Of a stretch of DNA of 64,000 nucleotides, positions 8,105-30,825 are shown one piece after another. The position numbers and the translations under genes are program-made. Under the pieces are notes generated by a model. It saw only the letters and a program-made list of their open reading frames with translations. It searched no databases and had not been told where the DNA came from. The DNA is from Shigella phage CM8, in sequence record MK962750. One strand, written 5' to 3'. The first letter of the stretch is position 1; each line of letters opens with the position of its first letter.

Positions 8105-8575
8105 TTAATCATGTTTCCACACCCCATCGGTATTTGACCAAAGCCGCTGATTATCTGATCCTCTCCACAGCTTTTTGGTCGGAAGATTTTTCTCATACTT
8201 CCCATCAATAATAACATCAACATATTTAAGCATTTCTAGTTGTTTAATATCTTCAAACTTATATCCTGTCCACAACCAAATGCTTTTATTTGGATAAAGA
8301 TTTTTTACTGTTTGAACAATGCAATGAATAACATCTCGATTATCAGGATAGAGAGGGTCTCCTCCAGTTATAGTTAATCCTTCTATATAATCATTATTCA
8401 AACATTCAATTAATTGTTCTAGTGTTTCACCAGTAAATGGAATACCATTTCTAGCATTCCATGTTGATTTATTATAACACCCTTCGCATTTATGCAAACA
8501 ACCTGTAACGAAAAGAACGGCCCTGCATCCAGGGCCGTTCACAAAATCGCAAGGATAAAATCTATCATAATTCAT
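8105..8575 (-). CDS. nrdG: Anaerobic ribonucleotide reductase activating protein (radical SAM)
   Basis: 156-aa ORF with cysteine motif CLHKCEGCYNK; same length as recalled T4 NrdG. Confidence 0.88.
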   Translation of the reverse strand: MNYDRFYPCDFVNGPGCRAVLFVTGCLHKCEGCYNKSTWNARNGIPFTGETLEQLIECLNNDYIEGLTITGGDPLYPDNRDVIHCIVQTVKNLYPNKSIWLWTGYKFEDIKQLEMLKYVDVIIDGKYEKNLPTKKLWRGSDNQRLWSNTDGVWKHD

Positions 8576-10389
8576 TGGTGTTTAACCCTATGCATGATTT
8601 CTTTATTTTTACCGAGATTAAATCCGCGTTCGTTCGGATTTCCCAAATAACCACATGTTCTTCTTATTGTGTTCATCTTTTTAGGATCAGTTTCTCCACA
8701 AATAGAACAAACAAATCCGTTTTCAGTAGGAGTCATTTCATGGGTACTTCCACATGTAAAACATTTATCTACTGGCATATTAACACCAAAATAATCTAAA
8801 TGTTGTGCAGCATAATCCCATACGGCCTCAAGACCCTTTAAGTTATTTTTCATATCAGGAAGTTCAACATAAGAAATGTGACCACCTGTCGCAATGAAAT
8901 GATATGGCGCTTCACGAGAAATCTTTTCAAACGGAGTAATATTTTCTTCTACTGAAACGTGGAAACTGTTAGTGTACCAGCCTTTATCGGTAACATCTTT
9001 TACACTTCCATATTTTTCTGTATCAAGTTTACAGAAGCGATAACAAAGGTTTTCAGCAGGAGTCGAATATAAACTAAAAGCAAATCCAGTTCTTTCAGTC
9101 CACTGTTTAAGATGAGCATTCATTTTAGTTAAAATTTCTTGTCCAATATCACGACCGACAAGAATATTCAATTCGTGAATACCAATGTATCCTAGGGACA
9201 CTGAACTTCTACCGTTTTTAAATAACTCAATTATGTCGTCATCAGGTTTAAGACGAACCCCGAATGCACCTTCTTGGTAAAGAATAGGAGCAACAGTAGC
9301 TTTAACTCCTTTTAAGGAACTAATTCTACACATCAATGCTTCAAAACATAAATCCATTCGTTCATTGAACAATTCAACAAATTTCTGTTCATTGAATTGT
9401 GTTCCAATATAAGAATCTAACGCGATGCGAGGAAGATTCAATGTTACAACACCAAGATTATTACGTCCATCAAGAATTTCATTGCCAGTCGAATCTTTCC
9501 ATACGCTCAAGAAACTACGGCATCCCATCGGAGAAACAGGAACAGATGAACCAGTGATAGCTTTATTGTTCTTAGCCGAAATGATGTCAGGATACATTCT
9601 TTTGCTTGCGCACTCTAAAGCAAGCTGCTTAATATCATAGTTCGGGTCGTCTTTATAAAGATTAACACCTTCTTCAACGAACATAACAAGCTTAGGGAAA
9701 ATAGGAGTTATCCCATCACGACCAAGACCTTTAATACGATTTTTCAGAATTGCTTTCTGAATCATTCGTTCAGTCCAGTCAGTTCCCGTACCAAATGTAA
9801 TTGTTACAAAAGGCGTTTGTCCGTTTGAACTAAAGAGAGTATTTACTTCATATTCATAAGCTTGGAATGCATCGTATACGTCTTTTTCTGTTTTAGATTG
9901 AGCATAATTTAACGCATCAGCGATTTGCCATTTTTCTGCATCCTCAATATGTTTTGCATAGGTGCGTTTAACATAAGGAGAAAGTACTTTATCTACATTA
10001 GCAAAAGTCGTTCCGCCGTATTGATGGGAAGCAACCTGTGCAGTAATTTGTGCCATAATTGCAGTAGCAACACCGATTGATTTAGGAGTTTCAATCTGTG
10101 CATTACCAAGCTTAAATCCATTCTCAAGCATTCCTTTTAAATCTACTAAACAACAATTAGTAAATGGAAGAGCAGGGGAATAATCAATATCGTGGAAATG
10201 AATAATTCCGCTTTCATGCGCTTTCATAATAAAAGACGGGACCATATTTTTGGCAATGTGTTTAGACACAATACCAGCCATAAGGTCCCGTTGAGTTGGA
10301 AAAACACGAGAATCTTTATTAGCATTCTCGTTTAAAAGGTCTTTATTAGTTTTATGAATCAATCCTTCAATTTCTTTTTCAATTGTCAT
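8572..10389 (-). CDS. nrdD: Anaerobic ribonucleoside-triphosphate reductase (glycyl-radical enzyme), uninterrupted
   Basis: 605-aa continuous ORF; C-terminal glycyl-radical motif RRTCGYLG and zinc-ribbon cysteines. Confidence 0.92.
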   Translation of the reverse strand: MTIEKEIEGLIHKTNKDLLNENANKDSRVFPTQRDLMAGIVSKHIAKNMVPSFIMKAHESGIIHFHDIDYSPALPFTNCCLVDLKGMLENGFKLGNAQIETPKSIGVATAIMAQITAQVASHQYGGTTFANVDKVLSPYVKRTYAKHIEDAEKWQIADALNYAQSKTEKDVYDAFQAYEYEVNTLFSSNGQTPFVTITFGTGTDWTERMIQKAILKNRIKGLGRDGITPIFPKLVMFVEEGVNLYKDDPNYDIKQLALECASKRMYPDIISAKNNKAITGSSVPVSPMGCRSFLSVWKDSTGNEILDGRNNLGVVTLNLPRIALDSYIGTQFNEQKFVELFNERMDLCFEALMCRISSLKGVKATVAPILYQEGAFGVRLKPDDDIIELFKNGRSSVSLGYIGIHELNILVGRDIGQEILTKMNAHLKQWTERTGFAFSLYSTPAENLCYRFCKLDTEKYGSVKDVTDKGWYTNSFHVSVEENITPFEKISREAPYHFIATGGHISYVELPDMKNNLKGLEAVWDYAAQHLDYFGVNMPVDKCFTCGSTHEMTPTENGFVCSICGETDPKKMNTIRRTCGYLGNPNERGFNLGKNKEIMHRVKHQ

Positions 10390-26276: not shown

Positions 26277-26614
26277 CTAGTACTCAATCCTCGATTATAA
26301 GAATCTACTAAACGGTCAACCATTGAATGACAAGCGGCTTTATCTTTCTCCTCCGCAACTGAACATTCTAAAGTATTCCACTTTTTAGCATATCGTTTTA
26401 ACAATGTATCATTTTTATATCTGCTTGATTTATCTCTTTCTCCGTCTTTATATGCATATATTAATTTCTGCGCAAATTCAGCTTGGCATGCTTTATTTTT
26501 CCCACAATAATCCGCGGCAGTACGGTTTACATACTCTCTAATTTCAGTATATGATGTATCTGCTAACGCAGAAAATGAAATTAATCCTATACATAAAACC
26601 AAAATTTTAGTCAT
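26273..26614 (-). CDS. Hypothetical secreted protein (cleavable signal peptide predicted)
   Basis: 113 aa; N-terminus MTKILVLCIGLISFSALA; four cysteines. Confidence 0.45.
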   Translation of the reverse strand: MTKILVLCIGLISFSALADTSYTEIREYVNRTAADYCGKNKACQAEFAQKLIYAYKDGERDKSSRYKNDTLLKRYAKKWNTLECSVAEEKDKAACHSMVDRLVDSYNRGLSTR

Positions 26615-27152
26615 TTACTATTTCCAAAAGTTTATTATTTTTAAGGTAATTAGCCTTTTCTAGGACTTCAGAAGCATATTTAGAACCAGCTTTAACATTC
26701 CATCCCGAATTATAAGAGGATATTGCTTTTCTTATATCGCCCTTATGTATATTTAACCAATAAGAAAGTTCAATGTACGCCCAGGAAGCTGAATTGGATC
26801 GTTTATTCAACATTCTTTTTATTTCAGCATCGGTCATATTATAACCAAGTTCCTTAACTCTTGCTCGCATAGTAGGCAAATAATTTTGGAACATTCCATA
26901 AGCGTGATGCTTTGGTTTAGATTTTAAATTAACTCCGCCAGAGCTTTCTTGCCATAAAATAGCAGCCATTATATGACCTAATCCGCTCTTGTGGATATTT
27001 TTGTGTGTTTTATATTTTCCATCCTTAGAAAATTGTTCCCCGAATTGATACGCGTAACGCATGTTATCGAGTTGGACATTACTGAAAGTATGCTCGGAGC
27101 TATGTGCCATCATTGAAATGGCCAATAGACCAGCGAGTAGTGCTTTTCTCAT
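26607..27152 (-). CDS. Secreted lytic-transglycosylase-like protein (SLT domain)
   Basis: 181 aa; signal peptide; catalytic-region motifs ILWQESSGG and AYGMFQ typical of the lysozyme-like SLT fold. Confidence 0.6.
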   Translation of the reverse strand: MRKALLAGLLAISMMAHSSEHTFSNVQLDNMRYAYQFGEQFSKDGKYKTHKNIHKSGLGHIMAAILWQESSGGVNLKSKPKHHAYGMFQNYLPTMRARVKELGYNMTDAEIKRMLNKRSNSASWAYIELSYWLNIHKGDIRKAISSYNSGWNVKAGSKYASEVLEKANYLKNNKLLEIVND

Positions 27153-27159
27153 GCTTACC

Positions 27160-27621
27160 TCATTGAGTTTTAATTACTGCTTTAGAAGCCTTTCCTGGTA
27201 AACGACGACTGTTAATAATTGCCATCCTACATTGAAGTGACGGGTCTTTGAACTTCGCATTAGGTTTACAAACTGTAAATCCAAGCCAAAGATTTCCATC
27301 TGTGATTTCTAAACGTCCAGGACGGTATTCAACCCCATCAATAAAATCCTCGTCAATGTCAGGACGCGGAGGCATACTCAGGAATTCATTAACTTCTAAA
27401 ACATGGTCTTTTATTTTGTGGAATAATTCAAAAACATATGTCTCATCAATCTCCCGTTGAATTGCACGATCAAGAAGATGCTGAGAATATTTTAGATGAA
27501 ACGATGAGACCCCTGCTGCTTTTGATGCCTCACGAATCTCATTGTTAATTTGACGAAACTCCGACTCAAAGTGACGACGAAGCTTATTTCGACGGATAAA
27601 AACTTCTGTGTTGATAGTCAT
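27160..27621 (-). CDS. regB: Sequence-specific endoribonuclease RegB
   Basis: 153 aa, MTINTEVFIRRNKLRRHFESEF..., matching recalled T4 RegB in length and sequence. Confidence 0.85.
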   Translation of the reverse strand: MTINTEVFIRRNKLRRHFESEFRQINNEIREASKAAGVSSFHLKYSQHLLDRAIQREIDETYVFELFHKIKDHVLEVNEFLSMPPRPDIDEDFIDGVEYRPGRLEITDGNLWLGFTVCKPNAKFKDPSLQCRMAIINSRRLPGKASKAVIKTQ

Positions 27622-27639
27622 GTTATTCTCCTCTTAACT

Positions 27640-27680
27640 GATAGAAAAATTATACCACAGTCAAGAGGAAAAGTAAACAG
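27640..27680 (-). promoter_or_regulatory. Early-promoter-like module upstream of regB
   Basis: gtaaac at 27673-27678 with upstream tataccacag -10-like region. Confidence 0.45.
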
Positions 27681-27959
27681 TTATTCTTTAAATCTAATCA
27701 ATTTATTCATAGACTTTGAAACTTCTGCACGGACCTCATGAAGGTTTTTGAGCTGTTCAAGACGTTGCTCATAGTAAGCAATTTCATCTTCTTCAAGACA
27801 GTCCTGTGAATCTTCTTTAAGATAACGTGCATAGTCCTGAAAAGCTTTACGGACTACTTCCTGGAAGTCATCAAGACTTTGAATTTTCTTAGGAGCAGCA
27901 GACACACGACGAGGGGCAGTATAATACTCATAACCAAACCCTGCGCTTAATTGAGCCAT
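27681..27959 (-). CDS. Hypothetical protein
   Basis: Start trimmed to ATG at 27957-27959 ([13 protein letters not shown]...). Confidence 0.4.
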
Positions 27960-28261
27960 TAGTATTTTTCCTCTGGTTGGAACACAGCACGACAAGCCCA
28001 CATACTGGCTTCTTTGAGTTTCGTTTTAGCAATAGCTAAATGATCGAGGCTTTCAGCGTAATTCTTCGCGAGTTCAAAGTCTTCGCAATTATCTAGTGCT
28101 TCCCAGAATTCATCATATAAAGCATCAAAGATAAGTCCTAAACGAACTTCAGCGTCTTTAATAGCATTTACTTTACCGATTTTTTCGTCGGTATGTGGCT
28201 TATAACCTTTAATATCTTCAATCATATTTGACTTCCTCACCAGTACATAAATCGTATTCAA
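27959..28261 (-). CDS. Hypothetical protein
   Basis: 100-aa acidic ORF. Confidence 0.4.
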
Positions 28262-28439
28262 CTAAACGAATAGGTTCATGAATGCCATATCCTTGAACAG
28301 AAATTTCTGTCGTAGGATAAATTCCATTAATATCACCCATGTTCCATGCTTCGTTAAATTGCTGTTCGCCTGAATTACTAAACCACTCGGCGAAAGCATT
28401 TAGCACATCTTCAGAACCTTCAATAATTATCTTTGCCAT
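28218..28439 (-). CDS. Hypothetical small protein
   Basis: 73-aa ORF. Confidence 0.4.
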   Translation of the reverse strand: MAKIIIEGSEDVLNAFAEWFSNSGEQQFNEAWNMGDINGIYPTTEISVQGYGIHEPIRLVEYDLCTGEEVKYD

Positions 28440-28801
28440 TACAAACTCTCGGTGAAGGTACGAGCGATAACGTCGCGCTGCTGTTCCGGAGTCAGAGAGT
28501 TAAAGCGAACTGCATAACCGGATACACGGATGGTCAGCTGCGGATATTTTTCCGGATGCTTAACTGCATCTTCCAGAGTTTCACGACGCAGAACGTTAAC
28601 GTTCAGGTGTTGACCACCTTCAATTTTAACTGTAGGCTGTTGCTCAATTTCAATTTCACGGGCATGCAAACCATAGAAAATTTCTGGGTCTACAAAAGAG
28701 TCCTCTTTAAAGGTTTTAGAGACAATAATTCGTGCTTGAATACCATCTTCAAAATAAATAGTACCTTTATGTGTGCCTTCAAGAATTTGATATGCTTTCA
28801 T
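28439..28801 (-). CDS. Autonomous glycyl-radical cofactor-like protein (GrcA/YfiD-like)
   Basis: 120 aa; C-terminal [25 protein letters not shown] carries the glycyl-radical fingerprint (RVSGY) of pyruvate formate-lyase C-termini and GrcA. Confidence 0.65.
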
Positions 28802-28807
28802 ATAACC

Positions 28808-29188
28808 TCAATTAGAAAATAAATTTATCCAAGATTGTTCTTTAATTAAAAATGGCTCAGAATCATATGCCATTAAACTCTGTGTGATTAGTCCTTTAAA
28901 AGGCCCATCAATAAATTCCATGGTAAAATATGGAATTTTATTCATTAGCCGTGCATTAGGAGCCGTGCACAAAACTCTGCATCCTTTGAATACGCCTTTT
29001 TGTAATTTGTATTGCTTGGGATAAAATTCGCTCAAAATGTTATTTTTTGCCAAAATTTCAAAATGATTCACCAATTTATTTTTAATAGTTTTTGGCGAAA
29101 AATAAAGATATTCGAAAAGCTGAGTGTCTGTCATCATTGCATTCCGATTACGAAAAACTGTGGACGAGTAATACCACCAATGCAACAT
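28808..29188 (-). CDS. Hypothetical protein (start uncertain)
   Basis: 126-aa ORF overlapping the next ORF's 3' end. Confidence 0.3.
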   Translation of the reverse strand: MLHWWYYSSTVFRNRNAMMTDTQLFEYLYFSPKTIKNKLVNHFEILAKNNILSEFYPKQYKLQKGVFKGCRVLCTAPNARLMNKIPYFTMEFIDGPFKGLITQSLMAYDSEPFLIKEQSWINLFSN

Positions 29189-29673
29189 TTAATATTACAG
29201 CAGCAGTGTACAGTGTCAATATGGACACTATAAATCTTATCCATATCAGGAGATTTGACAGGCTCATCAATTATATACAAAATTCGCGAAAGCGATAAAC
29301 CTCTGAACTTGCTTCCTTTATTACCAATAAAACTGCGCACAGAATCAGTAAATAAACGAAAACGTATATCATCATTAGAATAACGCGAAAATTCCTTTTT
29401 AATATTATCTGCGGAAATTTTAGCGTAAGCTGAAGTATTAGAAAGAACAATAACTGTTCCACCGTCATACAACCAATTAGCGGCAAAATTAGTTACTGCA
29501 GTTGATTTACCAGATTGACGCCCACCATCTAGTCGAAGTGTACAATACTGTTTAAGTAAGTCTTCAAATGGCGGGATATATTCGTTTTTACAAATTTCTT
29601 CTACTCTAGCATCAGAATGGTGTGTAAAAGCATTCATCAGGGATAGATAAGGACCAGTTAAAAATGTTCTCAT
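29134..29673 (-). CDS. Hypothetical P-loop protein
   Basis: ATG at 29671-29673; Walker-A-like GGRQSGKSTAV. Confidence 0.4.
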   Translation of the reverse strand: MRTFLTGPYLSLMNAFTHHSDARVEEICKNEYIPPFEDLLKQYCTLRLDGGRQSGKSTAVTNFAANWLYDGGTVIVLSNTSAYAKISADNIKKEFSRYSNDDIRFRLFTDSVRSFIGNKGSKFRGLSLSRILYIIDEPVKSPDMDKIYSVHIDTVHCCCNIKCCIGGITRPQFFVIGMQ

Positions 29674-29818
29674 TTTGTTCTCTCTAGGTTTGGGCCATTC
29701 CATGGCGCATGAATTGTCCATTTCTGTATTTACCCATTACCGCACTTGGGCTCGACCTTATTACAGGTTGGCGGGAATCCCTCACAGAATCATGAGGTCC
29801 AGGTTATTCCCATGTTAT

Positions 29819-30235
29819 TTAAATGTAAATATTTTTGCCGTAATACTTATACCAGTGTGGCTTCATTAAAATTTTTTCATCGAGTCGTTGTTGACTCAAC
29901 TTAATAGCTGATTTGCATGGATTATAATCATTTTTCCATTCTACTGGAATATCGCTGATGTCAGGAACTTCAGTATCTTTTATACTGAACCCGCGTTTTA
30001 AGCATTCCGTTATAATGTCCGATTGACGCTTTCGCAAAAATTCTAACTTATCGTAAAAGAAAGTAACATGACCAGAACCTAAAATAAATTTAGAAGATAT
30101 TTTAAAATCTTTAACGCGCTTACCGTTTGCCACATGCTTACGAACTATACCAAAAACACGCGGCAATTCACGGTATTCTGCGATTAAATGTTGATCAGCA
30201 AGTTCAGATACTAAAGTCAAATTAATACGAGTCAT
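29819..30235 (-). CDS. denV: Endonuclease V (pyrimidine-dimer DNA glycosylase)
   Basis: 138 aa, [29 protein letters not shown]..., near-identical to recalled T4 EndoV. Confidence 0.93.
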
Positions 30236-30254
30236 TTTATCCCTCCAAGTAACT

Positions 30255-30292
30255 GTGAATATACTATCACAATTCTAGGAGAAAGTAAACAA
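30255..30292 (-). promoter_or_regulatory. Early-promoter-like module for denV, overlapping the 3' end of e
   Basis: gtaaac at 30285-30290; GGAGGG Shine-Dalgarno at 30241-30246 (reverse complement) before the denV ATG. Confidence 0.45.
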
Positions 30293-30294
30293 CT

Positions 30295-30825
<531 letters not shown>

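Follow-up and report, generated by a model that had tools for sequence, protein, structure and literature searches.

Vs.6 of a Tequatrovirus is a predicted GrcA-type glycyl-radical spare part whose gene carries a tract identical in DNA to host grcA

Two spare-part proteins of about 14 kDa, E. coli YfiD (GrcA) and phage T4 Y06I, were described by Wagner et al. 2001 (PMID 11444864), as cited in PMC8683613. As that work is summarised there, the pyruvate formate-lyase (PFL) activase PFL-AE installs a radical on both proteins in vitro, and the activated proteins form complexes with oxygen-cleaved PFL, restoring its activity. No other spare-part protein has so far been validated (PMC8683613). The peptide RVSGYAV is the minimal substrate of the PFL activase and has been crystallised with PFL-AE (PDB 3CB8; PMC10665898). 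The T4 gene, vs.6, is non-essential (PMC1524935), and no in vivo phenotype of vs.6 was found reported in the searchable literature.

The window analysed here is a stretch of 64,000 nucleotides from Shigella phage CM8 (MK962750). Between positions 27000 and 30800 its identity to Escherichia phage Elenatom is 99.9%, and hundreds of Tequatrovirus genomes match it at 95-99%; we assign the window to Tequatrovirus. The gene order regB, vs.3, vs.4, vs.5, vs.6, vs.7, vs.8, denV, e is common to the window, T4 and phage DalCa. The vs.6 locus comprises the following features.

28439..28801, minus strand: vs.6 (Y06I) coding sequence, 120 aa with an ATG start, a predicted T4-type phage autonomous glycyl-radical cofactor (from the ORF list, the Gly_radical and GrcA profiles, T4 NP_049730 and phrog_1209).
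28508..28528, minus strand: codons of residues 92-98, RVSGYAV, which form the glycyl-radical fingerprint and the peptide recognised by the PFL activase (from the translation).
28806..28809, minus strand: Shine-Dalgarno GAGG of vs.6, which overlaps the TGA that ends the vs.7-like ORF upstream; minus-strand sequence ...TAATTGAGGTTATATGAAA.

The GAGG, 4 nt 5' of the vs.6 ATG, overlaps the stop codon with which the upstream ORF ends (TGAGGTTATATG); vs.6 in turn has a stop that overlaps the start of the next ORF (TAATG). With these two overlaps vs.6 is closely packed into a cluster of minus-strand genes, and its translation signals fit a real gene. A consensus scan of positions 27000-30400 gave no promoter or terminator of its own for vs.6 above chance, with 10 promoter-like sites against 11.2 expected and 2 terminator-like sites against 2.1 expected. 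The gene appears to be read within the minus-strand polycistronic cluster.

The glycyl-radical match of Vs.6 is far above chance. Residues 60-101 match Pfam PF01228 (Gly_radical) with 67 bits against a cutoff of 22.2 (E 2.5e-18), and residues 20-120 match NCBIfam TIGR04365 (autonomous glycyl radical cofactor GrcA) with an E value of 1.2e-45. Among solved structures the top match is E. coli GrcA (6owr, E 9e-42), followed by E. coli PFL (E 5e-26). The first-pass annotation had read 28439-28801 as a stand-alone GrcA/YfiD-like glycyl-radical protein and had proposed a profile search against glycyl-radical families as the check; both profiles and the structural match bear this reading out. The C-terminal string that it had quoted is present, although not as the final residues of the protein, since TESL comes after it. 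The radical glycine is Gly95 (codon GGT, 28517-28519), and the translation contains no cysteine.

The TIGR04365 score of Vs.6 is 154.9 bits, which is under the curated equivalog cutoff of 170, an annotation threshold that was tuned on bacterial GrcA and stands for no biological property. The score falls under the cutoff because the N-terminal half has diverged, and we therefore file the protein in a phage Vs.6/Y06I branch and not as a strict bacterial GrcA equivalog. Vs.6 is small and stands alone, being essentially a C-terminal Gly_radical domain without the catalytic barrel. Hence, as judged from its sequence, it is a GrcA-type spare part in the structural sense.

Vs.6 is identical to T4 Vs.6 (NP_049730) at 118 of 120 residues (98%), and we assign the ORF as the orthologue of T4 vs.6 / Y06I. 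The two have in common their length, their place in the regB-denV cluster, where vs.5 and vs.7 flank the gene, and a host-identical 3' half. They differ at residues 54 and 73, which are P54 and H73 in T4 but Q54 and R73 in the window phage, and E. coli GrcA has the same R as the window phage at the latter position. The last five codons also differ synonymously between the two alleles. Vs.6 is a full-length member of phrog_1209 (E 5.7e-63, residues 1-120 on profile positions 1-121).

Comparison with E. coli GrcA (YfiD, 6owr, TIGR04365) shows the same architecture, namely a small stand-alone protein with a C-terminal glycyl-radical domain. Over its last 63 residues (58-120) Vs.6 matches GrcA 65-127 with 100% identity, and its N-terminal half shows distant homology (HMM alignment over residues 20-120). 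In contrast, the 57 N-terminal residues of Vs.6 are strongly diverged and phage-specific, the protein is 7 residues shorter than GrcA, and a lytic phage encodes it and expresses it from its own transcripts. The same C-terminal residues align with the radical domain of E. coli PflB (PDB 1h16 and others) at PflB 697-759, including Gly734. Here the identity is about 84% and, unlike the PflB domain, Vs.6 is not joined to a catalytic barrel.

Vs.6 is therefore very probably an autonomous glycyl-radical cofactor of the GrcA/YfiD kind that repairs the oxygen-cleaved PFL of the host. The same function had been suggested from the window alone, and it agrees with the in vitro repair by the 98% identical T4 orthologue (PMC8683613). 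Since the biochemistry of T4 Y06I is published, that interpretation is correct and was already known; identifying the gene adds nothing new to what has been known of Y06I since 2001. For the window phage, we infer activation by PflA and rescue of cleaved PFL from the 98% identity to the T4 protein.

The mechanism, each step of which has been demonstrated in vitro with T4 Y06I, would run as follows in the window phage. The host radical-SAM activase PflA (PFL-AE) would recognise the RVSGYAV loop and, by abstracting a hydrogen, convert Gly95 into a stable glycyl radical. Traces of O2 would cleave active host PFL at its radical glycine, Gly734, so that the C-terminal radical domain is lost. The radical-bearing C-terminal domain of Vs.6 would then dock on the truncated PFL core and restore catalysis.

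The window also encodes a second glycyl-radical system, as had been claimed from the letters alone and as the following matches confirm.

8572..10389, minus strand: nrdD, class III (anaerobic) ribonucleotide reductase, a glycyl-radical enzyme that depends on formate (PF13597 E 1.7e-171, Gly_radical E 1.2e-25; annotation of the near-identical phage DalCa).
8105..8575, minus strand: nrdG, radical-SAM activase of NrdD (Fer4_12 E 4e-48, Radical_SAM E 2e-7; annotation).

Formate serves as the reductant for class III ribonucleotide reductases of the T4/E. coli type (PMC4493059). It is also the product of PFL, which makes an indirect link between Vs.6 and NrdD, through PFL-made formate, plausible. 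The spare part could thus benefit the phage in two ways, by maintaining acetyl-CoA and ATP production in microaerobic infection and by maintaining the formate supply for the phage class III NrdD. T4 shuts off host gene expression. With the shutoff, neither a replacement for PFL nor more GrcA would be made, and only a spare part made by the phage could keep PFL working once O2 had damaged it. This rationale, like the ATP and formate benefit, is our proposal; the formate link to NrdD provides a testable rationale for an in vivo benefit of vs.6.

Homologues of Vs.6 were found in 1587 phage records from Straboviridae and Demerecviridae. They occur in T4-like phages of Escherichia, Shigella, Yersinia, Klebsiella, Enterobacter and Aeromonas and, at about 52% identity, in T5-like Demerecviridae of Salmonella and E. 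coli. All of them combine a phage-type N-terminal half with the conserved C-terminal domain. As both T5-like phages and Aeromonas T4-like phages carry a homologue, the spare-part gene spans two phage families. In one member of each group a 122-aa homologue lies just downstream of a tRNA-Met gene, namely in Salmonella phage vB_STy-RN29 (Epseptimavirus; locus L089, 401-769) and in Aeromonas phage Riv-10 (locus L090, 392-760).

Between the window and a Slopekvirus-type allele, the C-terminal half differs by 28 synonymous codon changes and 1 non-synonymous change. Since nearly all changes in this half are synonymous, vs.6 is under purifying selection, which is strong on the C-terminal half, and appears not to be a passenger. 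No frequent frameshifts or deletions in vs.6 were evident among the records, 1537 of the 1587 covering at least 80% of the protein.

At the DNA level the gene is a mosaic of two parts.

28455..28623, minus strand: host-identical tract of vs.6, 169 nt (gene nt 179-347, codons 60-116), base for base the same as grcA on the E. coli chromosome; rich in GC, with codon usage like that of the host, and taken as host-derived.
28624..28801, minus strand: phage-type 5' half of vs.6, codons 1-59; AT-rich and a distant homologue of the N-terminal region of GrcA, without a DNA match in the host.

When vs.6 was compared by blastn with 5426 complete E. coli genomes, the 3' half alone matched (nt 179-363, 97.3%), and the match was always to grcA. 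The switch at codon 59/60 is sharp. On its 5' side the sequence is unrelated to grcA, with 20-60% DNA identity in 30-nt windows, whereas its 3' side is the exact match of 169 nt. The composition of the two parts differs likewise, with a GC content of 0.48 and a GC3 of 0.46 in the tract against 0.34 and 0.20 in codons 1-59 and a GC content of 0.347 in the whole window. The 5' half is conserved among T4-like and T5-like phages. Across the 169-nt stretch, the grcA genes of other genera differ from that of E. coli at 14 positions (Citrobacter), 23 (Enterobacter), 24-25 (Klebsiella), 28 (Yersinia) and 29 (Salmonella).

Slopekvirus-type alleles (loci L103-L105) encode the same 60 C-terminal residues, yet at the DNA level they reach only 83% identity to E. 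coli grcA, so that selection acting on the protein does not account for the DNA match to the host. A DNA identity of 95-99% to E. coli grcA is found only in the Tequatrovirus and Mosigvirus-type alleles (the window, T4, SA35RD and loci L092-L097). The alleles of Karamvirus, Krischvirus, Slopekvirus, T5-like and Aeromonas phages are 70-84% identical to any of 81 bacterial grcA genes, a set made up of 80 species and one E. coli strain. On this set, the idea that every phage lineage matches the grcA DNA of its own host was rejected, as only the Tequatrovirus and Mosigvirus alleles match E. coli.

The Jiaodavirus allele of Klebsiella phage LilPanda (locus L085, 401-763) has a GC content of 0.56 in its 3' half and 0.36 in its 5' half. 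This allele and locus L117 have their best matches, of 87-88%, in grcA of the Enterobacter/Pseudocitrobacter type, the set of genes compared being without K. pneumoniae and K. aerogenes. In a 19-kb IMG/VR sequence (IMGVR_UViG_2706794630_000006; locus L120, 301-594) the C-terminal half of a vs.6/grcA-like gene has 91% DNA identity to Yersinia artesiana grcA and 81% to that of E. coli, and this locus may be another host-matched case, or else bacterial DNA binned as viral.

The tract in vs.6 suggests a recent, possibly repeated, host-to-phage gene conversion. Between the window and the Mosigvirus alleles, 13 of the 52 codons with identical amino acids differ in the 5' half and 6 of 61 in the 3' half (Fisher p 0.04), and the last five codons of vs.6 are a patchwork of host-type and phage-type bases that varies between alleles. 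The contrast between the two halves, together with this patchwork, hints at more than one exchange. An alternative is a single capture of grcA followed by recombination between phages. We regard repeated host-to-phage conversion at vs.6 as plausible, although it falls short of being probable. The wider proposal, that such repeated conversion keeps the radical-domain half identical to grcA in the T-even phages that infect E. coli, while the spare part keeps PFL formate flowing to the phage NrdD, is put forward only tentatively. If it is true, a strictly lytic phage with modified DNA would be engaged in continuing homologous exchange with the chromosome that it degrades. The base-perfect tract is itself a clean, datable example of sequence flow from host to phage within a conserved phage gene, and no earlier description of the vs.6 mosaic was found in the searchable literature.

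Three other accounts of Vs.6 have to be set against repair of host PFL. One is that Vs.6 serves as a spare part for the phage NrdD, being activated by NrdG and replacing the oxygen-cleaved C-terminus of NrdD, and both repair of NrdD and activation by NrdG had been raised in the first-pass annotation. In its favour, the window does hold nrdD and nrdG, the common Pfam domain led Nolan et al. 2006 to speculate that the protein takes part in nucleotide metabolism, and spare parts for other glycyl-radical enzymes have been speculated upon (PMC8683613). The C-terminus of T4-type NrdD resembles Vs.6 in its Pfam Gly_radical match and in a radical glycine that is followed by Tyr. However, BLASTP gave no significant similarity between Vs.6 and the NrdD of the window (E 3.9), and on this result we rejected an NrdD repair part as the main reading. 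The radical loop of NrdD is RRTCGYL, against RVSGYAV in Vs.6, and it follows a CFTC...CSIC (CxxC...CxxC) zinc site, whereas Vs.6 has no zinc ribbon; the activase of NrdD, moreover, is NrdG. Neither suggestion thus finds support in the sequences. The Vs.6 domain is instead 100% of the GrcA type, with its match to PFL at E 5e-26, vs.6 and nrdD/nrdG lie about 18 kb apart and are not co-operonic, and the published biochemistry gives PFL and PFL-AE as the partners (PMC8683613). We therefore consider direct repair of NrdD highly improbable.

Vs.6 might otherwise act on the host enzymes as a decoy or modulator, soaking up host PflA or binding intact PFL and so redirecting host fermentation. It carries the exact PflA recognition loop, and a 2022 paper in J. 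Bacteriol. states in its title that GrcA can act on inactive full-length PFL in vivo, so the interaction is not restricted to the cleaved enzyme. The T4 protein, however, restores PFL activity in vitro and does not inhibit it (PMC8683613), and the exact conservation of the host GrcA domain is what functional replacement requires; a decoy is very unlikely, if slightly less so than direct NrdD repair. The least likely account is that vs.6 is a recently captured host fragment carried as a passenger without a selected phage function. The 169-nt identity to host grcA and the host-like composition of the 3' half would suit such a passenger, but the full-length gene with its phage-specific N-terminal half has been kept from Aeromonas T4-like phages to T5-like phages, its reading frame is intact with coupled translation signals, and across genera the changes in the C-terminal half are almost all synonymous. 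Repair of host PFL is the reading that we retain.

Databases are not consistent in how they annotate vs.6, a gene that has been characterised biochemically. In RefSeq, the orthologues of T4 and DalCa are called 'autonomous glycyl radical cofactor GrcA'. The records of near-identical phages carry the names 'hypothetical protein', 'pyruvate formate-lyase', '2-ketobutyrate formate-lyase' and 'acetyltransferase-related protein', and phrog_1209 is listed in PHROGs as 'unknown function'.

Several observations concern the neighbouring genes. The vs.8-like ORF (29134-29721, minus strand) encodes 195 aa against 219 aa in T4, and has a weak match to AAA_14 that is below the cutoff (E 0.0024, 18.3 bits against 27). 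The vs.1 orthologue (26607-27152, minus strand, 181 aa) has a hydrophobic N-terminus that resembles a signal peptide, and a marginal match of vs.1 to the SLT lytic-transglycosylase family has been noted in the literature. In T4, ipII and ipIII lie between denV and e, whereas in the window phage and DalCa e comes directly after denV; in the window, a gap of 59 nt (30236-30294) separates the denV-like ORF (29819-30235) from the lysozyme e ORF (30295-30789).
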